From a phage, in the NCBI GenBank assembly GCA_036252695.1, contig GCA_036252695.1_4122.1: a stretch of 64,000 nt of DNA; one strand, written 5' to 3'. How positions within the stretch are numbered: position 1 is the stretch's first letter; each line of letters starts with the position of its first letter. Shown one piece after another: positions 38,672 through 54,785 of this stretch. The notes beneath the pieces were generated by a model that saw nothing but the letters and a program-made list of their open reading frames with translations, ran no database searches and was not told the DNA's origin. The translations under genes and the position numbers were made by a program.

Positions 38672-38804
38672 CAGTACTGAATCATTTAATAGACGGATCT
38701 ATGCACCCGGTGGGTTAGTGACTGTTTCGTCTTGATGTAGTAATTATGCCAGTACTGGATGCACTTGTCAACAATTATTTTTCAAATACTTTTTATTAAA
38801 ATAC

Positions 38805-38858: not shown

Positions 38859-38879
38859 TGGTAACTAAGGAATAATAAA

Positions 38880-39137: not shown

Positions 39138-39199
39138 TACTGTATAATATTTTACATCGCAAGGGGGAGCGGTTCCCCCTGGTAACTAAGGATAATCAA

Positions 39200-39499
39200 A
39201 TGAAAATTGCAATCATCGCCCTGGCTTTATCTGTTTCCTCTTTCGCTGTTAATGCGTCATTAGATGTAAGTAGTGAAAAATTCATTCAGTGCACTGTTGC
39301 AATGACCGATGAAAGAACTGGCGAGATTGTATTAAAGGATTTAGAGATCCAGCCAGAAGCATTTAAAAACGGGCCGTTCCATGAAGAAGACGAAAAAGGT
39401 AGCACGACAATTTATTACGATGCAAGTACTAAACGCGGTTCGGTCACTGTTATGGATACTGAGAAAGTAACTCATACTGGCGTTATTAATTGCCGTTGA
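39200..39499 (+). CDS. small secreted/periplasmic protein (predicted signal peptide)
   Basis: N-term MKIAIIALALSVSSFAVNA-S fits signal peptidase I pattern; promoter and hairpin upstream. Confidence 0.6.
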   Translation: MKIAIIALALSVSSFAVNASLDVSSEKFIQCTVAMTDERTGEIVLKDLEIQPEAFKNGPFHEEDEKGSTTIYYDASTKRGSVTVMDTEKVTHTGVINCR

Positions 39500-39520
39500 T
39501 AGATACTACGGGGTAACATC

Positions 39521-39751
39521 ATGACTAAGCGAATTGTTTTACTTAACGAAAGCAGTACTACACAACTACTTAACGCCGTGCATTATGATATTGAAACGAG
39601 CGTTAATCTTATCAGTACTGTAGTACTATTGGACACTGGAAAGGTCGCCAATGATAAAGCGATTGCAGGTATATTAACGGATCTTGAGCCTGGTAGCAGT
39701 GCACCAATAACGTTAAATGGTAAAGTGTTTAATATTTTACTCACTGATTAA
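39521..39751 (+). CDS. hypothetical protein
   Basis: 76-aa ORF; followed by terminator. Confidence 0.5.
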   Translation: MTKRIVLLNESSTTQLLNAVHYDIETSVNLISTVVLLDTGKVANDKAIAGILTDLEPGSSAPITLNGKVFNILLTD

Positions 39752-39756
39752 GTACA

Positions 39757-39780
39757 TAGCCCACCTGGTGGGCTTTTTTG
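39757..39780 (+). terminator. intrinsic terminator
   Basis: agcccacc..ggtgggct stem then TTTTTT. Confidence 0.7.
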
Positions 39781-39984
39781 TTTTTGTAGTATCGTAGTAC
39801 TGAGATACTTTAAAAATAGTTTTAAAAAAGTAGTTGACATTACCACAAAAAGGCGTAGAATGTATTACATCAAGACGGGGAGCACTAAGTAGACCGCCAG
39901 TAAGTCGAACGAAAAACTGGACACGTCGAGAAAACTTTGATACACTAATAAACGTAAACTAAACTTTAATTGAGGATTTATAAA

Positions 39985-40467
39985 ATGGCTAATGTAAAAT
40001 CATTCATCAAAGCACTGGTAGCAAATGAAACTAACGTAGCGGCAGAGATCCTGGCTGAACTGGATAACGATACCATGAAAGCGGTACGCAATAATTTTAA
40101 CATCGCTTACAGTACTGCGAAAGAACTACAAGCAAATAAAGCGGCAGAAATTGAAGCGGCAAAGGCGGCCCGTGAAGCAGAACTACAAGCAACAATTGAA
40201 AGTATCCAGGCGGCAGTAGTTGGATTGGATCTGGAAGTAGTTACAGAGATGGCACAAAAAGCCCTGGCGGTTAAGTATGGGGAAGACAAGCCAGAAGTAA
40301 AAGCCAAAAAATGGATTCAGGAACGCGTAGCGGTAGTACTGGACAACGGGGAAGAATATCTGATTCCGGTGCGTGGTAACTGCATTGCGGTAGTACTGGA
40401 TGCGATTAACTCCAGTGGTATGACTCGCGAGGAATGGATCGAAGCTCATCGCAAAGTGGAAGCATAA
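39985..40467 (+). CDS. hypothetical protein (Ala/Glu-rich, predicted helical)
   Basis: Start MANVKSF after SD gagga; long structured leader from promoter at ~39836. Confidence 0.6.
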   Translation: MANVKSFIKALVANETNVAAEILAELDNDTMKAVRNNFNIAYSTAKELQANKAAEIEAAKAAREAELQATIESIQAAVVGLDLEVVTEMAQKALAVKYGEDKPEVKAKKWIQERVAVVLDNGEEYLIPVRGNCIAVVLDAINSSGMTREEWIEAHRKVEA

Positions 40468-40488
40468 CAATTAAAGTACTGAATCACT

Positions 40489-40515
40489 AGCCCACTGCAT
40501 AAGTGGGCTTTTTTG
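40489..40515 (+). terminator. intrinsic terminator
   Basis: gcccact-gcataa-gtgggc then TTTTTTG. Confidence 0.7.
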
Positions 40516-40751
40516 TGTTTATCGTTTACCAGGCCACCAGCACCGCCTAGAATCGATTCTAACGCATTAAACTGATTATCTGATGCATCGCCCTAGCTGG
40601 TGGCGTTAAGGTCGTTAGAATGCGATTGAGAGCGTTTAAAGTATTTTGCAAAAAGTAATAAAAAGTACTTGCACGATTAAGAGATTAGCGTATAATGTTT
40701 TACATCGAGAGGGGGAAACGGTTCTCCTTCCAAATCAAAGGAATTAAAACA

Positions 40752-40979
40752 ATGGCTATCGTAATCACTCGCGTAACTGGTACTACTGGCAATTCTTCTA
40801 CTGTTGCTGTAATTACTAATAAGAAAGGTGCGGAACTACATTTTGCAATGTATAACTGGTCAGTTGATGAGTTTGGTCAGTACGCTAGTGTAGAATACAT
40901 TGAAACCTATCAAGTGCCGTCGATTAGTTTAACTGATTTGGGCGTTGAGCGTATCCTTTGCCTGGATGAATTAAATTAA
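40752..40979 (+). CDS. hypothetical early protein
   Basis: Start MAIVITRV after promoter and hairpin gggggaaacggttctcc. Confidence 0.55.
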   Translation: MAIVITRVTGTTGNSSTVAVITNKKGAELHFAMYNWSVDEFGQYASVEYIETYQVPSISLTDLGVERILCLDELN

Positions 40980-41065
40980 AAAAGTACTTGCAAAGTAAAT
41001 CGAATAAAGTATAATACATTACATCAAGGGGAGAAATGGTTCTCCCTGATAATGAGGAAACTAAT

Positions 41066-41209
41066 ATGAAAACTTGTCAATGTGGTAAAAAATCTATTAC
41101 TGGTTTAAAGCGGGGCGTTGCTCTTTGTCAGTACCATTATAATTTACAAGTATGGGGTAAAGAATGGGCCGACCAGGTGGAAGCAGCAAAGAAAGCAAAA
41201 AGTAAGTAA
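41066..41209 (+). CDS. small Cys-containing protein (47 aa; CQCG..CQYH)
   Basis: Hand-translated ORF behind promoter and hairpin with SD gagga; below track cutoff. Confidence 0.4.
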   Translation: MKTCQCGKKSITGLKRGVALCQYHYNLQVWGKEWADQVEAAKKAKSK

Positions 41210-41228
41210 AAATATTATCACAGTACTA

Positions 41229-41257
41229 TTGACATAGTTTGATAGTACTGACATAAT
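41229..41257 (+). promoter_or_regulatory. class-2 promoter (AGTACT-flanked TTGACA..CATAAT)
   Basis: cagtactaTTGACAtagtttgatagtactgaCATAAT; same motif at ~41510, ~44590, ~52315. Confidence 0.55.
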
Positions 41258-41288
41258 AGATTTTATCAAGACAACTGAGGAAAATAAA

Positions 41289-41501
41289 ATGGCTATCATC
41301 ACTAAAATCAAAGTAAGTAAAACCCTGGTTAAACTTGAACAAGTGAAAGCAGGTTATAAAGTATCTTGGTGCGGTATGTATCGGATGTTCGCAGATATTG
41401 ATGAAGCAATCAATTATTACAGCGACACGGTTAAAAACTTTGTTCGTGCTGATGTGGTTATGGCAGTGGCAACGCACAAAGCAGCGAAAGAAAGTAAGTA
41501 A
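41289..41501 (+). CDS. hypothetical early protein (paralog of 44663..44842)
   Basis: MAIITKIKV..; similar N-term and length to 44663 gene. Confidence 0.55.
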   Translation: MAIITKIKVSKTLVKLEQVKAGYKVSWCGMYRMFADIDEAINYYSDTVKNFVRADVVMAVATHKAAKESK

Positions 41502-41590
41502 AAATATTATCACAGTACTATTGACATAGTTTGATAGTACTGGCATAATAGATTTTATCAAGACAACATATTAATTTAAGGAATACAAAA

Positions 41591-41914
41591 ATGGCTAAAA
41601 CTATCATTAACACCGTTTCCCTGGCTGCAATCCGTGCAATCAATGTTGACGGTAAACGTTGGACTGATTCATATGGCAATACTTATCATTCTTGTCATGT
41701 AAGCGTCGAACTGGATAACGGTTTGAATGATCTGGCGGTTGAATCATTTACTTATGGCTATGAAGATGCATATCAACAAACGGCGTTAGATCTATTAAAG
41801 GAATCAGTAGACGGGCTTAATACTGATGAAACCTCCCTTACTCGTTTGTGCAATGATCTTAATATCCCGTTGCATTGTACTGTACAGAATGTTAAACGCA
41901 AAAAAGATCTTTAA
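41591..41914 (+). CDS. hypothetical protein (paralog of 48675..48998)
   Basis: Shares RWTDSxGNTYHSCxVS and C-terminal VKRKKD with 48675 gene. Confidence 0.65.
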   Translation: MAKTIINTVSLAAIRAINVDGKRWTDSYGNTYHSCHVSVELDNGLNDLAVESFTYGYEDAYQQTALDLLKESVDGLNTDETSLTRLCNDLNIPLHCTVQNVKRKKDL

Positions 41915-41994
41915 TTAGCTTTACTTTATGCAGATACTTTGATATAGTGTCTGCATAGGGGAAAGAAATTAAATTAACTTAAGAGGAACGTATA

Positions 41995-42264
41995 ATGAAA
42001 AATATCAGTACTTTAATCGATGCAGGTACTCATGTTCGTCGGTCTATGGTTGCAACCAGTACTACAAAACAAGTAGCGAGCGGTTATCTTGTATTTGTGC
42101 ACGATGGTAAACTCCTGGAACGTTCAATCAATTTTGATGTTAAAAACAATTGCCGTTTTATTATCTTTAAGCGTGAACAATATAAAATTGATTTACCAGC
42201 GAAGCCCATAAGCGGGGCGTACAACGTGCAATCATTGTTTGAACGTCAACCATACACCTATTAA
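41995..42264 (+). CDS. hypothetical protein
   Basis: 89-aa ORF with SD gagga. Confidence 0.55.
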   Translation: MKNISTLIDAGTHVRRSMVATSTTKQVASGYLVFVHDGKLLERSINFDVKNNCRFIIFKREQYKIDLPAKPISGAYNVQSLFERQPYTY

Positions 42265-42315
42265 TCAAAACATCGTTAGCGGTCGATTTAGGCCGCTTGT
42301 ATTGGGGATTATACC

Positions 42316-42486
42316 ATGAACGTTAATCAAGTACTGAATGAGATCGAAAGCATCATTAAACCAATGAAACGCATTGATGCTATGTTAACACCGGAAGAAT
42401 GCCGCCTTTATGAGCGTTACAGTGTGGAACAAGCCCAGGAAATGGCCCGTATCCGTCCGGTTGCCAGTACTGATAAGGCGGCGTAA
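42316..42486 (+). CDS. hypothetical small protein (56 aa)
   Basis: Hand-translated; coupled to next gene (TAATATG). Confidence 0.35.
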   Translation: MNVNQVLNEIESIIKPMKRIDAMLTPEECRLYERYSVEQAQEMARIRPVASTDKAA

Positions 42487-42487
42487 T

Positions 42488-42697
42488 ATGCTTACTGTAC
42501 AGGATAAGATCGACATCTTAAAGGTTAATATGTATGTGATTGATGCCGTACCTGGTAAAGTATTTGCATACGATGATTCTAATCGCAGTCCGTTTTATTG
42601 CAGTCATGTAGTTGGATACGTGCCGTTGGCGTATGTTATAGAAAGAGTGGTTGATGCAGCATACAAACATTTTTTAGAAAATAATACTTGCAATTAG
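42488..42697 (+). CDS. hypothetical protein
   Basis: Start at internal Met MLTVQDK right after upstream stop. Confidence 0.45.
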   Translation: MLTVQDKIDILKVNMYVIDAVPGKVFAYDDSNRSPFYCSHVVGYVPLAYVIERVVDAAYKHFLENNTCN

Positions 42698-42767
42698 TTT
42701 TCAGTACTGTATAATGATTTACATCGAGAGCGGGAATAGTTCCCGCCTCACTTTTAAGGAATATGAA

Positions 42768-42914
42768 ATGAAAGCATCAAAAAAGAGTAATACTAAGAAA
42801 GCATGTTCACCTTTCGCTGGGGTATTCCCTTTACGTTTTGTTGATGAAGTAGTTTCCTACCCGCCGGGCCTTACTCCTGAGATGGTAGAAAGTTTGCGTA
42901 AATCTAAAAAATAG
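42768..42914 (+). CDS. hypothetical small basic protein (48 aa)
   Basis: Promoter, leader hairpin agcgggaatagttcccgc and SD aagga upstream. Confidence 0.45.
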   Translation: MKASKKSNTKKACSPFAGVFPLRFVDEVVSYPPGLTPEMVESLRKSKK

Positions 42915-42996
42915 TACTTGCAATTAGTTTTTAGTACTGTATAATAGTTTACATGAAGGGGAAAACGTTCCCCTTACACCTAACGAGGAAAGTATA

Positions 42997-43248
42997 ATGG
43001 AAACAATTTTAATCAAAGACACTGCTACTACTGTAACTTATGATAATGATTGCATTATCCCAGGGACTGAGTACGGCGAACGTGTACCCGTTCAAGTAGA
43101 GATTGATACCACATACATCGACAAGGCTGACCAGTGTATCACTATTGTAATTGGTGAATATCGTTTTCTACCAGAAGAGATCCAAAAATGGCAGAATATG
43201 ATTGACCGTGCGAAATTAGTCGCACAAAGTTTAAAATACAAAGTTTAA
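42997..43248 (+). CDS. hypothetical early protein
   Basis: Promoter, hairpin ggggaaaacgttcccc, SD gagga. Confidence 0.55.
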   Translation: METILIKDTATTVTYDNDCIIPGTEYGERVPVQVEIDTTYIDKADQCITIVIGEYRFLPEEIQKWQNMIDRAKLVAQSLKYKV

Positions 43249-43334
43249 AATAATACTTGCAATTAGTTTTTAAACGCGTATAATGTTTTACATGAAGGGG
43301 AGAAATGATTCTCCCCAATAACAGGAGAAACAAA

Positions 43335-43487
43335 ATGAAACAATACAACGCTCGGTTTGATGTTACTATCGGTAACGGCAAAGGTCAATTCTCTTTCAGT
43401 ACTCGCAAAAGTTATACAGAAAACTTCCTGCGTAATTGTGCACTGACCGCCGCACAAATTAAACATTACTTTCAGGCTAAAAAATGA
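43335..43487 (+). CDS. hypothetical small protein (50 aa)
   Basis: Promoter and hairpin ggggagaaatgattctcccc upstream; SD aggaga. Confidence 0.45.
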   Translation: MKQYNARFDVTIGNGKGQFSFSTRKSYTENFLRNCALTAAQIKHYFQAKK

Positions 43488-43573
43488 AATCATTAGCTTA
43501 TTACAGTTCGGCCCTGGTCGGTGCATTGATCGCGGCGTTGTTAGTAACCTATCTATTCTTTATGGTGATTTAA
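43484..43573 (+). CDS. putative 29-aa single-TM peptide
   Basis: Hand-translated MKSLAYYSSALVGALIAALLVTYLFFMVI; ATGA-coupled; speculative. Confidence 0.25.
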   Translation: MKSLAYYSSALVGALIAALLVTYLFFMVI

Positions 43574-43717
43574 ATGAATCCAACAGGTTTAAACTATAAA
43601 AGTTGTTCGGCGTTTACGAAAGCAAATAAAGCGAATGCACGTAAAGCGAAAGTAAAGGAGTACATCAAGCAAGGCATGACGCGAAAGGCGGCGATTCTAA
43701 AAGCTAAAAATAAATGA
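43574..43717 (+). CDS. putative small basic protein (47 aa)
   Basis: Hand-translated Lys-rich ORF directly after previous stop; speculative. Confidence 0.25.
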   Translation: MNPTGLNYKSCSAFTKANKANARKAKVKEYIKQGMTRKAAILKAKNK

Positions 43718-43860
43718 AAAAAGTGGTTGACTCCGGTCAGCCATTTTGCTATTATATATTCATTGAGAGATAGCTCACTAGCCCACAGGGTGCATAAGTG
43801 TATCTATTATATAAGTATTGAGTACTGAAAACTATTTTAAAAAAGTACTTGCAAACTATC
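43715..43860 (+). repeat. composite intergenic repeat unit (terminator with embedded TTGACT + TATTAT box + ~65-nt conserved segment)
   Basis: ggttgactccggtcagcc hairpin, gctattatata, then ..tagcccacagggtgcataagtgtatctat..cagtactgaaaactatttt; related copies near 47720, 51005, 52940; hairpin/-10 part also at 386..418 and 2014..2046. Confidence 0.55.
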
Positions 43861-43927
43861 TCAATAAGCGTATAATGTTTTACATCGAAAGGGGAAACGG
43901 TTTCCCCTGGTAATAAGGAAACAAATC

Positions 43928-44269
43928 ATGACTATCTCAATTGCTCAATCTAACTTTGAAAACGAAATCATCGCCCAGGCACTGCGTTTAAATGATGGTC
44001 GGGCCGAAATTAATTACGGTTTCAATTCAGGCGGTTGTGAAAAATATCAGTACTTTGTAACGGCTGATGGCGGTGTCCTGGGTATCAATACAGTTATTGT
44101 AAACATCCAAAAAATTAATTTCAATGATCCAGACGATAGCCAGTTTTACATCACTGGCGTAGACGTGAACTATGAGGATGACTCACTAACTGATGATCAC
44201 ACTGGCGAGCGGTTAGAAAGTGCATACGGTGAAGATGATTATCAGTCCGGTCCAGAAGATTTCGAATAA
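43928..44269 (+). CDS. hypothetical acidic protein
   Basis: 113-aa ORF behind promoter, hairpin ggggaaacggtttcccc and SD aagga. Confidence 0.6.
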   Translation: MTISIAQSNFENEIIAQALRLNDGRAEINYGFNSGGCEKYQYFVTADGGVLGINTVIVNIQKINFNDPDDSQFYITGVDVNYEDDSLTDDHTGERLESAYGEDDYQSGPEDFE

Positions 44270-44366
44270 TATAAAAAAAATAGTTTGACAATAGATTATA
44301 GTACTGTATAATAGTTTACATCAAGGGGAGAAAAACTTCTCCCCACTAACAGAGAGAGAAAACAAA

Positions 44367-44579
44367 ATGGCTAATATCCGGTCGAAATTAAAAAATGCAA
44401 AACAAGTTTTATTTTCAGATCATGAATACTTTAATAAAGATATTACAGGAGTTACAAGTATCAAGGAAGTAAAAGAAAAAACCGGCGTTTTGTGTGATGT
44501 GCGATTAGTTGGGACATTTGGGAATAACGTGCTATATCGCTGCGGTGATTACAATTTTACACTGACTATCATTAACTAA
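44367..44579 (+). CDS. hypothetical early protein
   Basis: Promoter TTGACA..TATAAT, hairpin ggggagaaaaacttctcccc, SD. Confidence 0.55.
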   Translation: MANIRSKLKNAKQVLFSDHEYFNKDITGVTSIKEVKEKTGVLCDVRLVGTFGNNVLYRCGDYNFTLTIIN

Positions 44580-44662
44580 AAATATTATCACAGTACTATT
44601 GACATAGTTTGATAGTACTGACATAATAACTTTTATCAACTACACTACTAAGGAATTAAAAA

Positions 44663-44842
44663 ATGGCTATCATCGCAAAAACTGAAATCGTTGGTCTGGA
44701 TTCTATCATCATGACGTTTGAAGATCAAAAAGGTATGTATGTAGTTTCCTATGGTGATTATGTTCGGGAGTATGAAACGGTAGACGAAGCCTTTGAAAGT
44801 TATATTCGCCAGGTGAATAAAGCATACGACGACTACCGCTAA
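44663..44842 (+). CDS. hypothetical early protein (59 aa; paralog of 41289..41501)
   Basis: Hand-translated MAIIAKTEIVG...; class-2 promoter upstream. Confidence 0.45.
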   Translation: MAIIAKTEIVGLDSIIMTFEDQKGMYVVSYGDYVREYETVDEAFESYIRQVNKAYDDYR

Positions 44843-44941
44843 AATATATTACCAGTACTATTAAATCTATTGACAACGTTTGATAGTACTGTATAATAAG
44901 TTTTATAAACAGTAGTTAACTTAACCTAAGAGAGAAATAAA

Positions 44942-45085
44942 ATGATCGCACTGGATTCATTCATCGACGCAGTACTGGCAAAAACTGGCGAGGATCTGAC
45001 CGCAGAACAATACGCGATGATCGAGCAATGTCAGCAAAACGGTAAATCGGTGAAAGATACTGTTAAGATTATCCGCAAGATGTAA
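44942..45085 (+). CDS. hypothetical small protein (47 aa)
   Basis: Hand-translated; promoter TTGACA..TATAAT upstream; hairpin terminator downstream. Confidence 0.4.
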   Translation: MIALDSFIDAVLAKTGEDLTAEQYAMIEQCQQNGKSVKDTVKIIRKM

Positions 45086-45091
45086 GATTAT

Positions 45092-45120
45092 AGCCCACTG
45101 GTTAACGCTGGTGGGCTTTA
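45092..45120 (+). terminator. probable intrinsic terminator
   Basis: agcccac..gtgggct stem with 12-nt loop; weak T tract. Confidence 0.45.
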
Positions 45121-45190
45121 ATCATTTACCCTATACAATGCCAGTACTAAACCGTTTATCTCGTTAGAATGCGTTACAGGACGTTTAACA

Positions 45191-45388
45191 ATGATTAGCA
45201 TGAAATCAGTACAAAAACAAATAGAAACATTATCAAAAATTAAACGTAAACAATACTCCTTAGAATATACAATCAATGGTAACTATCATCTAATGAAAGA
45301 AAATAATTTTATAGTCATTGATGAATCATTGCAAATTATTAGTATAGTACTGAAAGCATTAATCAATGACAGAAAAAAATTAAAATAA
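45191..45388 (+). CDS. hypothetical protein
   Basis: 65-aa ORF; AT-rich codons unlike neighbours. Confidence 0.4.
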   Translation: MISMKSVQKQIETLSKIKRKQYSLEYTINGNYHLMKENNFIVIDESLQIISIVLKALINDRKKLK

Positions 45389-45469
45389 TCTATTGACAAT
45401 ATCCTCCAGTACTGGCATAATACTTACATCAAGACGAGAACGTCACTAACCCATAGGGTGCACAAATGT

Positions 45470-45570
45470 AACTATATAATATCGATCAATAAATGATCAA
45501 AAAAGTACTGGATCAATTTAGCATAAGGAGTATAATTCTGATCAATTCTTGATCAAAGGCAATAAACGCA
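45470..45570. repeat. cluster of TGATCAA/TTGATCA motifs
   Basis: Five GATCAA-containing sites within ~90 bp in an intergenic region. Confidence 0.5.
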
Positions 45571-45717
45571 GTTGAATTTATATAGACAATACGAAGGCGT
45601 TACTATCCGTGGTAATGCTGGTGGATATGTAGTATCATGTGGTTTGAATAAGATTAGCACTAGTAGTATTATTGTAGCATTACAGTACTATAGTATTTTT
45701 ATAATGAGGTTAAAATA

Positions 45718-45975
45718 ATGGCTGTAGGATTTGCGAAGGACGGGGCCGAACAAGACGAGATTAACGCAGTGATTCAGGCCGCCGTAAACCACGCTAGAAA
45801 GCAAATTAACGCACAAATAGAATCACTGATACATTGCCTCGACTGTGGCGATAAAATCCCTGAGAATCGCCGCCAGGCTGTTAAGGGATGTAAGTACTGC
45901 ATAACTTGCCAGGAGGATCATGATAGTACTTTTAAAAGAGATCCGCGTAATTGTTGGCATAGATCTATGAGATAA
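45718..45975 (+). CDS. TraR/DksA-family C4 zinc-finger protein
   Basis: CLDCGDKIPENRRQAVKGCKYCITCQ gives the C-x2-C-x17-C-x2-C spacing with conserved IPxxRRQA core; SD aatgagg. Confidence 0.75.
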   Translation: MAVGFAKDGAEQDEINAVIQAAVNHARKQINAQIESLIHCLDCGDKIPENRRQAVKGCKYCITCQEDHDSTFKRDPRNCWHRSMR

Positions 45976-46038
45976 AAAGTATTGACAGTACTGAAAGATA
46001 GTGTATAATATTTTATATCTTAACTGAGGATAGTAATC

Positions 46039-46395
46039 ATGGGAATACAACATATCACGCGTACTACTGACAATGGTGAGATCACTGGCTATCAAGTACA
46101 GGGCAAAGTAGCACAATTGCAGTACTGGTTTGAAAAACGTGGAATCATTGCACCGGATCTTGATTATGACCGTGTAGCGTTTATTGATTCTCTTTATGTT
46201 GATCCTGATAGTCGGGGCAATGGTGAAGGTAACGAATTAATGAATGCCTTTATCGATGCCGCCGATGATTCAGATTGTATCATCTTAGAATGCGATACGG
46301 GAGAAGATAACGCCTTTAATCTTAAAGAATGGTACGAAGGTTTTGGATTCGAGGTACTGATCGATAGTGAATATCCTATCATGATTTTATCATAG
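46039..46395 (+). CDS. GNAT-family acetyltransferase-like protein
   Basis: LYVDPDSRGNGEGNELMNAFIDAA resembles GNAT acetyl-CoA-binding motif A; C-terminal YEGFGFE motif-B-like. Confidence 0.55.
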   Translation: MGIQHITRTTDNGEITGYQVQGKVAQLQYWFEKRGIIAPDLDYDRVAFIDSLYVDPDSRGNGEGNELMNAFIDAADDSDCIILECDTGEDNAFNLKEWYEGFGFEVLIDSEYPIMILS

Positions 46396-46467
46396 TACTT
46401 GCATTTAGTTTTCAGTACTGTTATAGTACTTACATCAAGGGGAAACGTCTTCCCCTACTAAGAGGAA

Positions 46468-46662
46468 ATGAAAATGGAAAACTTATCAAGTATTTTAGTA
46501 CAAGATGATTTCGGTAATCCTGGAAGTGCTATCATAGTTCGGGGCAATAAAGCAACGTTTGTTCTTGCTGGTGGGCCAGTACAGCGTAGCATTAAAAATA
46601 ATGCTGTTACCATTAATAATGTACGCTATCGCTTAGATAAAGAATTAATTAAAAATATGTAA
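46468..46662 (+). CDS. hypothetical early protein
   Basis: Promoter, hairpin ggggaaacgtcttcccc, SD gagga. Confidence 0.55.
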   Translation: MKMENLSSILVQDDFGNPGSAIIVRGNKATFVLAGGPVQRSIKNNAVTINNVRYRLDKELIKNM

Positions 46663-46687
46663 TATTAACTCAATAGGAAAACGATAA

Positions 46688-47011
46688 ATGTATATTCACA
46701 CTACTATCACAAAAGAAGTCCGTTGTCAATTCGAAAGTATCCCAGGTGTATGTTTCATTACAGGCACTTTCTCACCTGGTGACCGTGATAATCCAGTACT
46801 GTTACAATTACGCCATCCATCATGGGATAAAGCATTTGATCTACCGTTGAATGAATTCGCAACTACTGCTGAAAAGTACATTAAAAATATTCGCGAGAAT
46901 GATCGACTATTCATTAATGCTTTCAGTGATTCCGCGTTAAGCGAGATTCATGCGGTACTAGTTGCAATCATGGAATCAATGCAGAAAACTAAATTCAAAC
47001 AAGGTGAATAA
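46688..47011 (+). CDS. hypothetical protein
   Basis: 107-aa ORF with SD-like aggaaaa. Confidence 0.55.
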   Translation: MYIHTTITKEVRCQFESIPGVCFITGTFSPGDRDNPVLLQLRHPSWDKAFDLPLNEFATTAEKYIKNIRENDRLFINAFSDSALSEIHAVLVAIMESMQKTKFKQGE

Positions 47012-47095
47012 AAACTATTGACAATGCAATCCAGTACTGTATAATAAGTTACATGAAGGGGAGAAATGATTCTCCCCAGTACTGAGGAAAGAAAA

Positions 47096-47308
47096 ATGCA
47101 AGGTCAACTAATCGTTCGTAAATGGTCTGATACTAACGCTAAACCGTGGGATGTACAATACATCGCCCCCAATGGTGAATCCAGATATCAACCAGGTGTA
47201 ACGCATAGTACTGAGCAATTTGCCGCCGCTCACCGTGAACGACTGTTACAATCCATGCAGCAAGGCTTCGGTGAAAAATTCATTCAGGATCATTGGCTGA
47301 AAGATTAA
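47096..47308 (+). CDS. hypothetical early protein
   Basis: Promoter TTGACA..TATAAT, hairpin ggggagaaatgattctcccc, SD gagga. Confidence 0.55.
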   Translation: MQGQLIVRKWSDTNAKPWDVQYIAPNGESRYQPGVTHSTEQFAAAHRERLLQSMQQGFGEKFIQDHWLKD

Positions 47309-47394
47309 AAAGTACTTGCACAGTACTGAATAAAGTGTATAATGTTTTATATCGAGAGGGGAACTATTCCCCTCCTAACAAAAAGGAAAGTATA

Positions 47395-47568
47395 ATGATC
47401 CAAGTAGAATTATCAGTACTGAAAGATCTATTTTATCGGTTAGGTACTAATGGCGAGTATCCTAAAAGTGATACCGCAAAACTTTTTGTATCACTCGACT
47501 TATGGCAACGCGAACAATTAGTAATGTCGTGGCGTAAAGGTAAAGCAGATCGCGAGGTGAAAGCATGA
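47395..47568 (+). CDS. hypothetical small protein (57 aa)
   Basis: Start after promoter, hairpin gaggggaactattcccctc and SD aagga. Confidence 0.45.
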   Translation: MIQVELSVLKDLFYRLGTNGEYPKSDTAKLFVSLDLWQREQLVMSWRKGKADREVKA

Positions 47569-47714
47569 AAGAATTCTTATTCGAAGTAGTGTTTCAAGGT
47601 GTCGGTAGTAACCAACTGATTCGCTCAAGTGGTTATAATGTTAACCAGGCATGGAATAACATTAAACAAATGTACCCGAACGCTATCACATATCGCAACC
47701 CGAAAGAAGTTTAA
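47565..47714 (+). CDS. hypothetical small protein (49 aa)
   Basis: Hand-translated; ATGA-coupled. Confidence 0.35.
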   Translation: MKEFLFEVVFQGVGSNQLIRSSGYNVNQAWNNIKQMYPNAITYRNPKEV

Positions 47715-47899
47715 AAATAATTGAAAAAGGGATTGACTCCGGTCAATCCCTTTGCTATTATATACGCATAGAAACAAATTAGCCCACCGGGTGCATAAAT
47801 GTATCTATTGTTTGCTGGTGGCTAGTACTATCAAGTACTGAAAACTATTTTTAAAAAAGTACTTGCATTGTACTTAGAATCAAGTATAATGTTTTACAT

Positions 47900-47979
47900 C
47901 AGGACGGGGAACGAAATAAGTAACTTCCCGTTAAGTAGTCCAGGAGTAAGACATACGAAAAACTCCCCTGATAAAATAG
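47900..47979 (+). ncRNA. candidate structured RNA element / long leader (copy 2)
   Basis: Near-identical to 36925..37004; again sits between two tandem promoters. Confidence 0.4.
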
Positions 47980-48040
47980 TTTGACAATAGAAATTAAACG
48001 AGTATAATACTTACATCAACCACTGATAAGGAAACATAAA

Positions 48041-48316
48041 ATGCGGATTCTACTGACAGCTAACGAAATCGAACAAGTACTGACTACTAACCTGGAAGAC
48101 TGGAAACGTGAAGCAGATATCCAGTCGGTTCAATGGCTTAACGATAAGTTAACGCCGGATGACTTAAGCAAGATTGTAGATCCTCAATTCTACGAAGATA
48201 TCCACGACACCGCGTTAAGCGTCGAGGATGTACTAGATAAGCACTTTATTGATACAGATTTGCAGGTTTACGGTCGTAAAAACTTTATCACTATTCACGA
48301 CATTTACAATACTTAA
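48041..48316 (+). CDS. hypothetical protein
   Basis: 91-aa ORF with SD aagga behind second tandem promoter. Confidence 0.6.
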   Translation: MRILLTANEIEQVLTTNLEDWKREADIQSVQWLNDKLTPDDLSKIVDPQFYEDIHDTALSVEDVLDKHFIDTDLQVYGRKNFITIHDIYNT

Positions 48317-48319
48317 GTA

Positions 48320-48382
48320 TTGACAAAGTATCTTAGTACTGTATAATAGTTTACATCAAGTGAGGGGAAACGGTTCCCCTCC
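48320..48382 (+). promoter_or_regulatory. class-3 promoter plus leader hairpin
   Basis: TTGACA 48320..48325, TATAAT 48342..48347, hairpin gaggggaaacggttcccctc 48363..48382; near-identical copy ~48593..48650. Confidence 0.6.
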
Positions 48383-48404
48383 TAACAAAGAGAGAGAAAT
48401 AAAA

Positions 48405-48587
48405 ATGGCTAAGTGCACTATCTGCAAGAAAGAAATAGTATTAGTTCCAAGTGCCCGTGAACGTGCCGCTCGGTTTGGTGGCAAAGCGTCAGACTATACA
48501 AAAATGTTTACTGCCCATACAGCTTGCCAGGTAGCAAAACGTTCACAAGAAAGCGTAGAATTAATGCGTAAACTTTCCAAAAAATAA
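48405..48587 (+). CDS. small putative zinc-ribbon protein
   Basis: MAKCTICKKE...HTACQ (CxxC ... HxxC); SD gagaga. Confidence 0.5.
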   Translation: MAKCTICKKEIVLVPSARERAARFGGKASDYTKMFTAHTACQVAKRSQESVELMRKLSKK

Positions 48588-48674
48588 GTATTGACAAAGT
48601 ATCTTAGTACTGTATAATAGTTTACATCAAGTGAGGGGAATGGTTCCCCTCCTAACAAAAAGAGAGAAATTAAA

Positions 48675-48998
48675 ATGACTATGATCCTTACCCAGAAAGT
48701 AGAAATGAAAATTGTAACTTCCTTTGACATTAAAGTTAATCGGTGGACTGATAGCCACGGCAATACTTACCACTCATGCTACGTGTCTGCATTGATTGGT
48801 GACCGCTGGGAAGACCTGGGACATGAAACCTTTACTTACGGTTACGGTACACAAGGCGAATACACGGGCTTGGAGATCATTAAAGAAACCGTTATAGGTT
48901 TCAACCCGAAAGAAAAAGTTATTCACCGCATCGAGGAAGAGATCAACAAAGAAATTACAGTTCGTTACTACGATGTAAAACGTAAGAAAGACATGTAA
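48675..48998 (+). CDS. hypothetical protein (paralog of 41591..41914)
   Basis: Shares RWTDSHGNTYHSCYVS motif. Confidence 0.65.
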   Translation: MTMILTQKVEMKIVTSFDIKVNRWTDSHGNTYHSCYVSALIGDRWEDLGHETFTYGYGTQGEYTGLEIIKETVIGFNPKEKVIHRIEEEINKEITVRYYDVKRKKDM

Positions 48999-49097
48999 TA
49001 GAATCCATTTAAAGTACTATTTGACATTGCCCAGATAGTACTTTATAATAGACTCTAACTTGTAGTACTAATTAACTTAACTAATAGGATGTACACC

Positions 49098-49493
49098 ATG
49101 ATTACTAAATTCTTCGCTACCCGTGAACAAGCTCGCATCGTTGCCCGTGAAGAAGGTGAAACATTTAAAGACATGGGCAAAGATGCACCGAAAGGACAAC
49201 GCTGGGCGGTACAGTTCAAAGAGATCTCTGATATTGTGAATTCACCTGAACCAGTACTTACTGAAGCAGAACTGAAGAAAGCTCAAGAACTGGCTGAAGT
49301 ACTGAACGCTCAAGATGACTTCTTGAAAGGTTCTGATATTCAAGTACAAGTGAATAGTAATGCATGGACTCACGCGGATCACCTGGCAAACCTTAAGCGT
49401 CCAAGTGAACTGATTCGTAACCAGAAAGAGATTCGTCATGACCGTAAAGGAAACCGTGTAACAGTATACAGTAAACGCCGCCAGGTTATCTAA
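49098..49493 (+). CDS. hypothetical protein (paralog of 36056..36322)
   Basis: MITKFFATREQARIVAR..TFKDMG..RKGNRVTVY. Confidence 0.65.
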   Translation: MITKFFATREQARIVAREEGETFKDMGKDAPKGQRWAVQFKEISDIVNSPEPVLTEAELKKAQELAEVLNAQDDFLKGSDIQVQVNSNAWTHADHLANLKRPSELIRNQKEIRHDRKGNRVTVYSKRRQVI

Positions 49494-49555
49494 TAACTTT
49501 GCAGTACTAACAACACGGCGGGAACTATTCCCGCCTTTTTTATAGGATAAACAAA

Positions 49556-49810
49556 ATGATTAAGGTTCAACTATCAAACGATAATGTATTACGGGTACAC
49601 TATAAAGCCCCACAGAGAATCATCACAAAGGCCGTACAGCTTGCTAATGAGTTTATTAATGGTAGTCTATTGCCTAGGAAGTTAAGCAACGGGAAACTAC
49701 GTGTTATCGATGTAGACACTAACAATAGAATAGTGATCGAGAGTACTGGAAAAATTAATCTATATGAACACCAACAATACAATAAAAAAATAAAACTAAT
49801 ATCACGTTGA
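49556..49810 (+). CDS. hypothetical protein
   Basis: 84-aa ORF after hairpin ggcgggaactattcccgcc plus T run. Confidence 0.5.
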   Translation: MIKVQLSNDNVLRVHYKAPQRIITKAVQLANEFINGSLLPRKLSNGKLRVIDVDTNNRIVIESTGKINLYEHQQYNKKIKLISR

Positions 49811-49868
49811 CAGTACTCAAATGTTTTAGTATTATGTATCTATACCAACACAGAGAGAGAGAAACAAA

Positions 49869-50087
49869 ATGAAATTATCTAAAATCGAAAAGAAAACTAT
49901 TGATGAAGCAGTGAAGCACGGTTATACCTTTCGTAATGATTCACACTTCACTAGTTTTCAACAGGGAAACCGTACCATCAAAAAACTCATTGATAAAGGT
50001 TTACTCACTAAGGTTGATAACGGGAACGGTGTAGAATATCAACCGACAGAAGACGCATTATCACTAAAGAAATATTCTATTATCTAA
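49869..50087 (+). CDS. hypothetical protein
   Basis: 72-aa ORF with SD gagaga. Confidence 0.55.
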   Translation: MKLSKIEKKTIDEAVKHGYTFRNDSHFTSFQQGNRTIKKLIDKGLLTKVDNGNGVEYQPTEDALSLKKYSII

Positions 50088-50144
50088 TTGACAGTACTCA
50101 AATGTTTTAGTACTATGTACGCATACCAACACGGGGAAAACAAA

Positions 50145-50387
50145 ATGATTACTTTAGAAAAACGTATCAAAGAGACTACAACGCTGGTGGAACTGTTAAC
50201 CGTTCTTAAATGCCGGGTAACTCCATTCAGTACACCGGACTTTATCAACATGGTGGACGTTAACGGTCGATATCGTATTGCGGTCGAACAAGGTACGGCA
50301 AAAGTATTCAGTACTAAAAATACGCGTGAAGTATTCCACGCAGTTCAAGTAAAAAAAGTAGTTGCCATTGATAGTAAAGTACTGTAA
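50145..50387 (+). CDS. hypothetical protein
   Basis: Start MITLEKR after SD gggga; upstream ~35 nt nearly identical to the region before 49869. Confidence 0.5.
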   Translation: MITLEKRIKETTTLVELLTVLKCRVTPFSTPDFINMVDVNGRYRIAVEQGTAKVFSTKNTREVFHAVQVKKVVAIDSKVL

Positions 50388-50418
50388 TATAGTTTCATTA
50401 ACTCAAGGAGTCAACACA

Positions 50419-51003
50419 ATGCGTAACTATACTAAATTCATCCGTTCACTTCATGCAATGGAAACCAACAAAGAGATCCTTTCAGCTTGTCGGTTAGCTG
50501 GACTGGAGATCGTCGGTGCGGGTTCTTCCCGTATTGTATTCGCTTTAAATGATCGGTTAGTGATTAAGGTCGCGAATTGTGATGCGGGTGTAGAACAAAA
50601 TGAAACTGAATGTAAGGTATGGAATTTTTTAGATTATGACCGTCCGCACCTTAAACAGTACTTTGCTAAAGTGCATATGCATTTATGCGATCCTGATAAT
50701 CTGTTTATTGTTATGGATCGTTTGAGTACTGCAAGCAAAGGCAGTGTAAAGCATGTAAACGCGTGCAATGAGTTAAAGTACAATATTAAACGTAATACGG
50801 TAGAACGCCATCACCATTTCGCTGATGCTCTCAATCACGTTGATGATACATTATCCACACTAACGATAAGAGATATCAGAAAACAGAATATCGGCCAGGA
50901 TCGCAACGGCTTGATTAAAGTACTTGATTACGGTTTAACCCGCAATATCTGGAATCAGTACTATAAAAAACGTGATGTTAACGCGATAACTATAACACGA
51001 TAA
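50419..51003 (+). CDS. protein-kinase-like protein (putative Ser/Thr kinase)
   Basis: Gly-rich loop VGAGSSRIV, VAIK-like VIKVA, catalytic-loop-like IRDIRKQN, DFG-like VLDYG, in the canonical order; strong SD aaggag. Confidence 0.6.
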   Translation: MRNYTKFIRSLHAMETNKEILSACRLAGLEIVGAGSSRIVFALNDRLVIKVANCDAGVEQNETECKVWNFLDYDRPHLKQYFAKVHMHLCDPDNLFIVMDRLSTASKGSVKHVNACNELKYNIKRNTVERHHHFADALNHVDDTLSTLTIRDIRKQNIGQDRNGLIKVLDYGLTRNIWNQYYKKRDVNAITITR

Positions 51004-51227
51004 AAAAGATTAAAAAAGGGATTGACTCCAGTCAGTCCCTTTGCTATTATATATTCATTGAGAGATAACTCACTGACCCATAGGGTGCGGAAGTGTATCT
51101 ATTATATAAGTATTCAGTACTGAAAACTATTTTATAAAAAGTACTTGCAAACTATCTCAATGAGCGTATAATGTTTTATATCGAGAGGGGGAAATGGTTC
51201 TCCCTGGTACTAAAAGGAATCAAGACG

Positions 51228-51449
51228 ATGACTACTATGACATGCGTTCACGCTTCAAATCTTCTGAATGATGCAGCATTTAAAGCAGGTGAAGAATATC
51301 AATGCTATCGGGATGAAAATAAAAAAGTTTTCGTCGTTGATGCTAACGGTTTCCATATTGAATTACAATCCGGCTTCACTGGTGTTGATGGTAAATCAGT
51401 ATGGGGCGTACAGGATGATAACGGTACATATCATTTTAAACGTAATTAA
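51228..51449 (+). CDS. hypothetical early protein
   Basis: Promoter, hairpin gagggggaaatggttctccct, SD aagga. Confidence 0.55.
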   Translation: MTTMTCVHASNLLNDAAFKAGEEYQCYRDENKKVFVVDANGFHIELQSGFTGVDGKSVWGVQDDNGTYHFKRN

Positions 51450-51533
51450 GTATTGACAAAGTATATCAGTACTGTATAATAGTTTACATCAAGGGGAGAA
51501 TAGCTCTCCCCACCAATAAAAGGAAACAAAATT

Positions 51534-51806
51534 ATGTCCAGCTACTCCGCTACTATGATTATTAAAGATATGAACGGTAATCCTACTTCTGCTGGTGGAT
51601 CATTTGGTAACATTAATTTAGATGGGCGGTTATCAATTGAATCAGCCATCAATGCAGCGAAAGAAGTTTTTAAGAATGAATGTACTGTAAGCAAACTGGA
51701 TTATATGGGCTTCGCTATCGAGAAAACTAATCGTTTTGTGGACTACAAAAAACCACTGATGATTGATACTAACCTGAAAGCAAACGAAGTGGAATACTTA
51801 TTATGA
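51534..51806 (+). CDS. hypothetical early protein
   Basis: Class-3 promoter, hairpin ggggagaatagctctcccc, SD aagga. Confidence 0.6.
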   Translation: MSSYSATMIIKDMNGNPTSAGGSFGNINLDGRLSIESAINAAKEVFKNECTVSKLDYMGFAIEKTNRFVDYKKPLMIDTNLKANEVEYLL

Positions 51807-51994
51807 CAGTAGAAGAAGTTAAAAAAGTACTGGCAGTACTACGCTATCATAATCATTGTAAGGTGAAGAATGATCCTGATTATCTTGATTCATCGCTGGA
51901 AGAGGATACACTACAAGCAATAAGCCATATGCAAAAAATGCTTAAGCGTATGACCGAAAAGAACAGGCCGGACTATATCGGAAATAAAATTTAA
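51803..51994 (+). CDS. hypothetical protein
   Basis: ATGA-coupled 63-aa ORF. Confidence 0.5.
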   Translation: MTVEEVKKVLAVLRYHNHCKVKNDPDYLDSSLEEDTLQAISHMQKMLKRMTEKNRPDYIGNKI

Positions 51995-52077
51995 AAAGTA
52001 CTTGCATTGTAAGTAAAACAAAGTATAATGTTTTACATAGGGGGAGATATCCTCCCCCACTAATAAGGAGTACTAAA

Positions 52078-52302
52078 ATGGCTAACTTTGATGAACTGAT
52101 GCGGGAAGTAGCTACCCTGGCAGAAGAGAAGAAATCATTTGATTCTATCTATAACACCGCTTACAGTGATTCAGTACTGGCATGTACTCAGGATCAAAAA
52201 GATGAACTGATCGCCACCTATCATGAAGCATGGAAGTATTACCGCCAATGGGAGAAAGAAGAAAGCGAGTCTACCATCAACGGCATCAATAATCTAATCT
52301 AA
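52078..52302 (+). CDS. hypothetical early protein
   Basis: Promoter, hairpin gggggagatatcctccccc, SD aaggag. Confidence 0.6.
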   Translation: MANFDELMREVATLAEEKKSFDSIYNTAYSDSVLACTQDQKDELIATYHEAWKYYRQWEKEESESTINGINNLI

Positions 52303-52377
52303 AGTTTTATTTCAGTACTATTGACAATGCGTGATAGTACTGATGTAATAACTTTACTAACTACAAGGGGAAACATA

Positions 52378-52635
52378 ATGGAACAGTTCACACAATATCG
52401 GGTAAATCCTCAAGCTATGGCCTACGTAGAAGACCATAAAACATTACCAGTACAGACACCAATCAAAGGCCGTATCTATCGTGCTATGCAGTGGAATAAC
52501 GCCTATAATGGCTATAAAGCGGTAGCGGCTGCAATGTACTTAGGGGATGGCGAATGGTTTGATCCAAATAATCCTGGTGCACTAGATAGTACTGAACAAA
52601 TGACATGGGCCGACTATATCGAAGATATTTCATAA
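52378..52635 (+). CDS. hypothetical protein
   Basis: Start MEQFTQYR after class-2 promoter and SD ggggaaa. Confidence 0.55.
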   Translation: MEQFTQYRVNPQAMAYVEDHKTLPVQTPIKGRIYRAMQWNNAYNGYKAVAAAMYLGDGEWFDPNNPGALDSTEQMTWADYIEDIS

Positions 52636-52723
52636 AAACTATTTGACAGTACTACAAGATAATGTATAATGTTTTACATAGAGCGGGGGAATAGTTCTCC
52701 CGCACCTTTAGGAGTAAAACATT

Positions 52724-52924
52724 ATGTCAATCGCTAACGAATTGGTTGCAGTACTGAATGAAGCAAAAGCCAACTGCATCGATGTACAGATCAAAGAGCT
52801 TGGCAATGGCTTGATCGGCTGTACTTGTACAGTGCAAACGGCTACCGATTATCGGGAAGTGGAATCACTCGAATCACTGGTACGGTATATTAAAATCCTG
52901 GTAGAAGATTGGAGAATCATCTAA
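52724..52924 (+). CDS. hypothetical early protein
   Basis: Promoter, hairpin gcgggggaatagttctcccgc, SD aggag. Confidence 0.55.
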   Translation: MSIANELVAVLNEAKANCIDVQIKELGNGLIGCTCTVQTATDYREVESLESLVRYIKILVEDWRII

Positions 52925-53182
52925 CAAAAAAGAATAAAAAAAAGGGATTGACTCCGGTCAGTCCCTTTGCTATTATATACGCATAGACAAAAACTAGCCC
53001 ACAGGGTGCAGAGAAGTATCTATAAGATAGTTAATAACGGTGAGTAACTATCTGCTGGTGGATGTAATGCCAGTACTCAAAACTATTTCAAAAAAAGTAT
53101 TGACAAAGTATATCAGTACTGAGATAATGTATCTCGTAGGGCGGCAATAGTGCAGCCCACCTCCAAAAGAGCGAGATATAAA

Positions 53183-53398
53183 ATGGCGTTAACCAAACAA
53201 GAAATTATCGACCGTATCAAAGAGTCAACTGGCTGGTATGTTGGGGACCGTTTAATTGTTAAAGTTCTCGATTATTCAAATAATCCTCTTGCACCGGAAC
53301 CAGTGGCATACAAATTATCCTGGATATCTGCGTTTAGCGGTAAGCGTGAAAGATGTGTGTACTATCCGAACACAGTCGGGCTACAGTTCTGTAAATAA
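53183..53398 (+). CDS. hypothetical protein
   Basis: Start MALTKQE after class-3 promoter and hairpin gggcggcaatagtgcagccc. Confidence 0.5.
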   Translation: MALTKQEIIDRIKESTGWYVGDRLIVKVLDYSNNPLAPEPVAYKLSWISAFSGKRERCVYYPNTVGLQFCK

Positions 53399-53498
53399 AT
53401 TTTAATAGAAAAAGTATTGACAAAGTATATCAGTACTGCAATAATGTATCTCGTAGGGCGGCAATGGTGCGACGGCCCACAAAGTTAGGAGATTCACC

Positions 53499-53825
53499 AT
53501 GAGTACTTCAATCGCTATCGTTAAAGCTTTCATCCGTACCAATTTCGACCGCATTACTGTTGATGGTAATGATCGGGAAGTAGAATACTCTTTCATTGTT
53601 GCACAAACCGCAAACGGTGCACGCTATATCTTAAACGATAGTGAAGCTAACCACTACTTCTATAATAAAGGATTACACTACATCCCTAGCGAAGTAGTCT
53701 ACAGTAAGATGAATAAGCTGGTAGACAAGATTAACGCTAAAGGTACTATCGATTTACAGTACTGGACCGAAACCGATCCAGAATACGGATCACATCGTTA
53801 CCTGAATCCAGGAATTAAAATGTAA
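53499..53825 (+). CDS. hypothetical protein
   Basis: 108-aa ORF, SD aggaga, class-3 promoter upstream. Confidence 0.6.
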   Translation: MSTSIAIVKAFIRTNFDRITVDGNDREVEYSFIVAQTANGARYILNDSEANHYFYNKGLHYIPSEVVYSKMNKLVDKINAKGTIDLQYWTETDPEYGSHRYLNPGIKM

Positions 53826-53914
53826 AAAGTACTTGCATTGTACTTAGAATCAAGTATAATGTTTTACATAGAGAGGGGGAAATGGTTCTCCCTCCTAAAT
53901 TAAGGAGTTTTATC

Positions 53915-54316
53915 ATGACCTTCTCAATCACTTCCTTCGCTGACGTTTTAGTACTGGCTCGGACTTTTGGTAAAGATGCACTGGAGTACGCTGTAAGTAA
54001 TGGCACTCTCCAACCGGAACAATGCCGCATCATTGGAAACTGCAAACGTTGGGCGGTATCCAATACTATTGCACTAGAAAACTTCAACGATGGTAACAAT
54101 GAGTATTCAGTTGATGCAGTATTCGAAGCCGTTGATCTTGGCGGTATCTATAACACTAACCTAAATGATGTGCGTATCGTTCGCACGGGGTTCGGTGCTT
54201 ATGATGTATCTATCCGTGAAGCTATGAACACCGGATACATTAGTAAGGACTTACTTGCTCACATCATGCAGCTATGGACGGAACGTAACGAAGCACGCAC
54301 TATCTTAGGGCTGTAA
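53915..54316 (+). CDS. hypothetical protein (133 aa)
   Basis: Promoter, hairpin gagagggggaaatggttctccctc, SD aaggag. Confidence 0.65.
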   Translation: MTFSITSFADVLVLARTFGKDALEYAVSNGTLQPEQCRIIGNCKRWAVSNTIALENFNDGNNEYSVDAVFEAVDLGGIYNTNLNDVRIVRTGFGAYDVSIREAMNTGYISKDLLAHIMQLWTERNEARTILGL

Positions 54317-54384
54317 GCATTACACATCACCAAACATCATAGGCCGCTCTCTAGCGGCCTTAACTATATCAGGAGGGCATACAT

Positions 54385-54594
54385 ATGTTCTATACAGTAT
54401 ACAGCGTTCTAGGTACTATTGCTGGCGTACATGATAACGTCAGTGATGCTATGCGTACAGTACTGCAACAGGTTCCACTAAAGCCTAAGACTGTTAAGCA
54501 GATGACAGCACGACTAACCAGGGCGACGGATGGCGTGGAAGTATGGCAGGACTACGGGGATACACAGATAATCGTTAGCGTAACGAAGGATTAA
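54385..54594 (+). CDS. hypothetical protein
   Basis: 69-aa ORF with SD aggagg; preceded by hairpin ggccgctctctagcggcc. Confidence 0.55.
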   Translation: MFYTVYSVLGTIAGVHDNVSDAMRTVLQQVPLKPKTVKQMTARLTRATDGVEVWQDYGDTQIIVSVTKD

Positions 54595-54785
54595 TGCGTA
54601 AAGGGATCTAGTACTGATTCAGAAAAAAGTCAAGGCGTTTTTAAAATAATGCGTTAAAAAAATGCATAGGTAATCCCTTGACTTTTTTAAAATAAAAGGG
54701 ATTGGACTATGGCAAAATGCGTAGGGGGCTAAAGGGCGGGTAACCTTAGCGACTTCGATAAAGGGGTATTACGAATAAAATGTTA

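Follow-up and report, generated by a model that had tools for sequence, protein, structure and literature searches.

Does a small open reading frame (ORF) in the terminal-repeat region of a jumbo phage encode a working kinase and, if so, a kinase of which kind? The ORF in question comprises 194 codons on the plus strand (positions 50419..51003, stop included) of a 64,000-nucleotide stretch of phage DNA (contig GCA_036252695.1_4122.1; hereafter, the window). An initial annotation, made from the letters of the window alone, had proposed the 194-aa product, here called the mini-kinase, as a candidate eukaryotic-like protein kinase with four characteristic motifs, and both the ORF and the motifs are present where that annotation had placed them (Table 1). 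At the nucleotide level, the gene shares 97.9% identity with gene 308 of Escherichia phage 121Q and 91-94% with its counterparts in 34 other Asteriusvirus jumbo phages; judging from these matches, the window derives from a 121Q-type Asteriusvirus jumbo coliphage.

Kinase fold, catalytic residues and truncation

Searches with the single sequence produced sub-threshold matches to the Pfam families PK_Tyr_Ser-Thr (E 0.0015, 18.3 bits versus a gathering cut-off of 23.1) and Pkinase (E 0.0028, 17.5 bits versus 31.7), and the weak sequence matches among PDB entries were protein kinases nearly throughout. A profile of 11 homologues had MKK4 as its top match (E 2.3e-4) and aligned positions 29-181, that is, the span from the Gly-rich loop to slightly beyond the DFG motif, to residues 21-170 of MKK7 (E 5.5e-4 to 9e-4). 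The catalytic loop and the DFG region, IRDIRKQNIGQDRNGLIKVLDYG, are in register with a 23-residue stretch of MKK4, such that D152...N157 and D170-Y-G172 correspond to the D-x-x-x-x-N and D-[FY]-G signatures of protein-kinase-like (PKL) proteins. The other elements of the PKL core, a G33-x-G35-S36 Gly-loop and a K50-E64 pair, are also present, with the VAIK-like Lys motif at residues 47-52 and with the third Gly of the loop replaced by an invariant Arg (R38).

An AlphaFold2 model built from a 35-sequence alignment (mean predicted local distance difference test score, 92.1; predicted template modelling score, 0.87) consists of two N-terminal helices, strands beta1-beta3, a long helix C and beta5, followed by the C-lobe elements, namely, helices D and E, beta7-beta8 and one C-terminal helix (residues 175-183). 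Structural matches of the model were exclusively to protein-kinase-like folds; Foldseek retrieved APH(2''), Lpg2603, MEK1, PRPK and Rio2, mostly with a probability of 1.0. Absence of a kinase fold and failure of the catalytic residues to align were the two outcomes that, according to the initial annotation, would refute it; instead, model and Foldseek yielded a two-lobed fold in which the N-lobe is joined to the core of the C-lobe that carries the catalytic elements, and the alignment with real kinases holds. Thus, three independent lines, the MAP2K-type profile matches, the modelled fold and the conserved catalytic set described below, support the proposal of a protein-kinase candidate.

An exhaustive profile search identified 2,077 cluster representatives (50% identity) at E<=1e-3, 249 of these at E<=1e-10, mostly of 180-280 aa, and residue conservation was counted over 137 single-domain representatives. 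R38, K50, Q60 and E64 were invariant (137/137), and D170 and G172 were found in 133 of the 137. An Asp occupied query column 152 in 88 representatives and column 151 in 47, a split that apparently reflects a one-column shift of the alignment, and N157 varied among N, H, S and Q in distant relatives. The near-complete conservation of the catalytic set implies strong selection on the catalytic machinery, and the mini-kinase is, as predicted from these features, very likely an active ATP-dependent phosphotransferase.

The same pattern bears on the possibility that the protein is a non-catalytic pseudokinase or scaffold, or a partner of a nearby ParE-like toxin, and works by binding. The protein is indeed very small and devoid of the regulatory elements of kinases, and an ORF of 84 aa with a ParE-like toxin domain lies three genes upstream in the window, with ParE/YafQ-like genes recurring 0-7 genes upstream of the kinase in the related contigs L008, L010 and L012 and in phage Muenster. 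However, a catalytic set that is (nearly) invariant over 137 diverged relatives runs counter to the decay expected of a pseudokinase, the spacing of the ParE-like gene is variable, and in two related contigs, L011 and L013, no such gene was found within 4 kb of the kinase. The linkage therefore looks like shared synteny; we rejected a functional ParE-like/kinase pair on these grounds and consider non-catalytic action extremely unlikely.

The mini-kinase ends 24 residues after the DFG-like Asp, D170, and accordingly contains no activation segment, APE motif or helices F-I of the C-lobe. The median tail beyond this Asp across the 137 representatives is also 24 residues, which shows that the truncation is a trait of the family rather than an artefact of gene calling. 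The program-made ORF list contained a longer version of the gene starting from a TTG at 50362; the relatives, however, are all 191-212 aa long and nearly all align from the Met of the ATG start, so that the ATG at 50419 is the right start.

The nearest sequence-level matches are Hanks-type Ser/Thr kinases (MKK4/MKK7, PknB), with which the mini-kinase shares, in register, the Gly-loop, Lys, Glu, D-x-x-x-x-N and D-[FY]-G. Unlike Hanks-type kinases, the mini-kinase family has invariants of its own, R38 in the Gly-loop and Q60-N61 before the helix C Glu, and the protein is truncated and falls below the Pfam Pkinase cut-off, as do all members of the family: 0/35 reached it, the best E value being that of the window protein itself (0.0028), and 16/35 had sub-threshold matches. 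The mini-kinase is not a full Hanks-type domain.

T7K, protein substrates and their alternatives

The initial annotation had likened the protein to T7 gp0.7 (T7K), a comparison that serves solely as an analogy. Both proteins are small, phage-encoded and located in early regions, and both cores end soon after the metal-binding Asp; they further have in common the sequence A-G-[LF]-x-x-[LV]-G-x-G leading into the Gly-loop, a beta3 motif V-I-K-V and a catalytic-loop pattern D-x-H/R-x-x-N, and T7K-like proteins are among the structural neighbours of the mini-kinase in the viral database BFVD (E about 1e-5). In contrast, the metal-binding motif is DYG in the window protein, DPV in T7K and DPL in gp144 of phage Sharanji, DPV/DP-x in place of DFG being the motif of the T7K family (PMC13645617), and the C-terminal shut-off/DNA-binding domain of T7K has no counterpart in the mini-kinase. 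The T7K family corresponds to Pfam PF27024 and phrog_2828/15752 and includes JSS1_004 and jumbo-phage homologues such as Sharanji gp144. The window protein had no match to PF27024 at E<=10, and it belongs, with its Muenster orthologue, to phrog_4301 only, whereas T7K and Sharanji gp144 fall into phrog_2828/15752. Alignment of profiles with hhalign weakly brought the right motifs of the two families together (6% probability), and a broader query profile raised this to 36%, in the N-lobe only. We therefore rejected membership in the T7K family. The Asteriusvirus homologue of T7K is a separate gene, gp144 in Sharanji, which is absent from the window; these phages thus carry two unrelated small kinases. 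Sharanji gp144 (positions 4183-4857 of contig L004) is a 224-aa protein of phrog_15752 with the motif ITDPL and without the shut-off domain.

As to what the mini-kinase might phosphorylate, several observations favour proteins: its nearest sequence matches are Hanks kinases; sub-threshold Pkinase matches occur in 16/35 family members and APH matches in 0/35; P0035, a distant member, has a canonical RDFKPDN loop; and T7K offers a precedent by analogy (PMC13645617). Two features weigh against this preference and make protein substrates less certain, namely, that the Lys two positions after the catalytic Asp is not conserved in the family and that the substrate-binding lobe is wholly missing. A small-molecule kinase of the APH/choline-kinase type, with a metabolite, an antibiotic-like compound or an immune nucleotide second messenger as the target, is an alternative that we regard as unlikely. 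The mini-kinase has neither of two marks of that class, a hidden Markov model match and a C-terminal helical substrate-binding subdomain: no family member matched the Pfam APH model at E<=0.1, and the helical subdomain that forms the APH substrate pocket is likewise absent from a protein with 24 aa past the DFG Asp. Also against this alternative, T7K, a proven protein kinase, likewise has DMHSGN, and P0035 has RDFKPDN.

Another conceivable role during infection is that of a kinase for nucleic acids, with tRNA or a different RNA as the target, in the manner of the archaeal minimal kinase ArkI. However, the scores behind this comparison did not exceed those obtained with dozens of ordinary protein kinases, there was no match at the sequence level, and no RNA-repair genes lie near the kinase, which renders this reading highly improbable. 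Among minimal bacterial effector kinases, HopBF1 may be one of the closest known systems, and OspG and NleH are comparable by size.

Within the preferred reading of protein phosphorylation, hyper-promiscuous activity in the style of T7K was not supported because Ser/Thr/Tyr are no scarcer in the proteins encoded by the repeat region (17.4%) than in those encoded downstream (17.2%), in a comparison weakened by AT-rich composition and crude ORF calling. A PADLOC scan returned a weak, generic kinase similarity to PD-T4-6 and nothing else.

Genomic setting in the terminal-repeat region

Phage fEgEco12 has direct terminal repeats of 20,993 bp, determined by PhageTerm and confirmed by restriction digests (PMC13070987). 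Its orthologue of the kinase gene, g044, is at 16,161-16,745, and a second copy, g658, is at 369,901-370,485, so that both repeats carry the gene. Comparison of the window with positions 1-24000 of fEgEco12 by blastn matched window position 33,576 to fEgEco12 nucleotide 1, the left physical end. Therefore, the repeat-equivalent part of the window extends over ~33.6-54.75 kb and the kinase lies ~16.8 kb into it. In the Klebsiella phage Muenster, the orthologue likewise falls within a terminal repeat, for which PhageTerm predicted a length of 20,030 bp. The junction of the right unique end with the terminal repeat falls inside the window.

The repeat-equivalent region holds about 50 small, densely packed genes on the same strand and 11 perfect sigma-70 sites (TTGACA-N16-18-TATAAT), all on the plus strand between 37006 and 52670, against a chance expectation of 0.17. 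Most of these promoters have a spacer ending in ...AGTACTG directly before TATAAT. Given the 11 perfect sites, early transcription of the region by the host RNA polymerase is likely, and so is early expression of the kinase, with the timing deduced from this organisation. In the searchable literature, we found no Asteriusvirus transcriptomics and no survey of phage kinases beyond the work on T7K.

The 80-aa ORF directly upstream, which corresponds to Sharanji gp064, is probably co-transcribed with the kinase: no terminator-like site was detected between the two genes, and the one located inside the kinase coding sequence (50514-50536) is likely spurious. The kinase apparently comes second in a short transcription unit, for which two candidate promoters were found by consensus scan. 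A 12-bp hairpin (51015-51042) directly past the kinase stop, overlapping the -35 element of the next promoter, likely marks both the end of the kinase transcript and the start of the next unit.

The hairpin/promoter element at 51015 recurs at 47726 and 52941 and belongs to a ~190-nt intergenic module present in four copies (Table 1). Each module consists of an A-run, the 12-bp hairpin (AAAGGGATTGACTCCGGTCAGTCCCTTT), the 5' arm of which contains the -35 element TTGACT, a TATTAT -10 element, a conserved stretch of ~60 nt (…GCCCACAGGGTGCATAAGTGTATCTAT…) and a second promoter, TTGCAA-16-TATAAT; related variants are found at 389 and 2027. An Rfam scan of the whole window, modules included, gave no matches, and the module could be a terminator/promoter cassette or a gene for a short RNA.

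Elsewhere in the window, ~20 paralogous genes encoding proteins of 296-407 aa are arranged back to back on the minus strand, in more copies than in Sharanji. Among their Sharanji counterparts, one has been given the annotation of an RCC1-repeat protein, and the products are unusually rich in Ser/Thr/Tyr (26.6%).

Table 1. Positions, in window coordinates, of the mini-kinase gene, its motifs and surrounding features
Feature	Positions	Strand	Basis or remark
Mini-kinase coding sequence	50419..51003	+	ORF and translation; 121Q gene 308; phrog_4301; AlphaFold2 model
Shine-Dalgarno AAGGAG, 8 nt before ATG	50405..50410	+	read from sequence
Gly-rich loop IVGAGSSRIV (G33, G35, S36, R38, V40), residues 31-40	50509..50538	+	
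K50 codon, beta3 'VAIK' Lys	50566..50568	+	137/137; profile matches align to beta3 Lys region
E64 codon, helix C Glu in Q60-N61-x-x-E64	50608..50610	+	invariant, 137/137
Catalytic loop IRDIRKQN (D152 catalytic base, N157), residues 150-157	50866..50889	+	aligned to HRDIKPSN of MKK4
VLDYG, DFG-equivalent metal-binding motif (D170, G172), residues 168-172	50920..50934	+	aligned to CDFG of MKK4
80-aa ORF directly 5' of the kinase	50145..50387	+	Sharanji gp064; no Pfam/PHROG match
Candidate sigma-70 promoter TTGACA-17-TACTAT (10/12), unit of 80-aa ORF and kinase	50088..50116	+	consensus scan only
Candidate sigma-70 promoter TTGACA-17-TATTAT (11/12), further upstream	49807..49835	+	consensus scan only
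ORF with ParE-like toxin domain	49556..49810	+	PF24732, 40.4 bits, above cut-off
12-bp hairpin past the kinase stop, overlapping -35 TTGACT of next promoter (-10 TATTAT)	51015..51050	+	
~190-nt intergenic modules	43690..43960; 47700..47970; 50990..51260; 52915..53185		
Region homologous to fEgEco12 direct terminal repeat	33576..54750		blastn; inner boundary approximate
Array of ~20 paralogous genes	5402..28156	-	

Family, proposed role and significance

Apart from those in Asteriusvirus, homologues with 35-40% protein identity are present in other RaK2-like jumbo phages of Klebsiella, Salmonella, Erwinia and Xanthomonas. The orthologues include 121Q gene 308, Sharanji gp063 (WNN14351.1), fEgEco12 g044, PBECO4 L7TKF0, Muenster CPT_Muenster_043 and Munch AZU97990.1; at 35-98% identity, equal length and equal place in the terminal-repeat early region, the RaK2-like orthologues show no difference of substance from the window kinase. 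The mini-kinase matches phrog_4301 with E 2.6e-42, a group labelled 'unknown function', and no second copy was found in a paralogue search within the window.

The prediction of a kinase is not new because orthologues have already been annotated in GenBank and UniProt and named in print. The Munch and Muenster proteins are each recorded as a "putative protein kinase", the latter with an HHpred match to 6J5T_M at 99.9%; those of Turkey5, Turkey3 and fEgEco12 as "serine/threonine-protein kinase"; and that of ph0011 as "protein kinase domain-containing protein", the name that PBECO4 L7TKF0 also bears in UniProt. The Sharanji paper describes WNN14351.1, which we confirmed as the orthologue gp063, as "another protein kinase, which function is unknown" (PMC11895373). 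New with respect to the searchable literature are the family-level picture of ~2,000 clusters, which comprises their shortened architecture, an Arg that is invariant in the P-loop and the Q-N of helix C; the place of the kinase in the terminal-repeat early region; and the clear separation of the family from T7K.

Several distant relatives depart from the single-domain, early-region layout. The metagenomic proteins P0044, P0045, P0049 and P0051-P0055 (468-969 aa) each contain 2-5 tandem mini-kinase domain matches, at least 2-4 of which are strong, full-length copies, with their own Gly-loop, Lys and DYG in every copy looked at and with no Pfam matches. In ten distant relatives that are longer or contain several domains, Pfam scans detected no domain that would hint at function. 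The gene for P0035 (227 aa; contig L007, 8001-8684) belongs to the structural module of a T4-like contig of 189 kb, where it is flanked by homologues of T4 gp23 (major capsid) and gp13, a gene context very unlike the early region around the window kinase.

The explanation towards which we lean, by a modest preference, is that of a minimal, active early kinase that phosphorylates proteins for takeover of the host or for counter-defence. In this scheme, the protein would be a catalytically competent, ATP-dependent kinase of the PKL fold. Its N-terminal extension of two helices is followed by a complete N-lobe, which holds the Gly-loop and K50 paired with E64; the remainder comprises helices D and E, the loop for catalysis (D152...N157), the DYG motif for metal binding and a single final helix. 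As there is no activation segment and there are no substrate-docking helices, the choice of substrate would have to come from the small core, the N-terminal extension or a partner protein. Most likely, the host RNA polymerase would transcribe the gene within minutes of the start of infection, and the kinase would then phosphorylate host, and possibly phage, proteins on Ser/Thr, acting alongside the separate T7K-like kinase of these phages.

A wider and rather doubtful proposition is that phrog_4301 and its ~2,000 metagenomic relatives form a distinct, undescribed clade of phage 'mini-kinases' with unusual behaviour. Its own invariant signature, made up of a P-loop GxGSxR and a helix C G-x-x-Q-N-x-x-E, and the lack of a substrate-docking lobe might reflect such behaviour. 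These enzymes might need a partner from the host or the phage in order to be activated and directed to their substrates, by analogy with the dependence of OspG on E2~Ub, or might act on something other than protein, for instance a nucleotide used in immune signalling. On this reading, the mini-kinase would equip jumbo phages, beside their T7K-like kinase, with a second and mechanistically different form of phosphorylation-based counter-defence.

As a finding from genome scans, the kinase call is already in public records; the protein is nonetheless a worthwhile experimental target. Recent work has established the phage kinases T7K and JSS1_004 as broad anti-defence weapons (PMC13645617). Of the two unrelated small kinases of 121Q/RaK2-type jumbo phages, the mini-kinase is encoded in the terminal repeat, probably among the first DNA to be expressed. 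Study of the mini-kinase would show how a kinase works with barely more than a catalytic core, and because the family is large, at 2,077 clusters, and has neither a Pfam model nor a functional label, a single study combining biochemistry with phosphoproteomics would yield an annotation for thousands of genes in phages.
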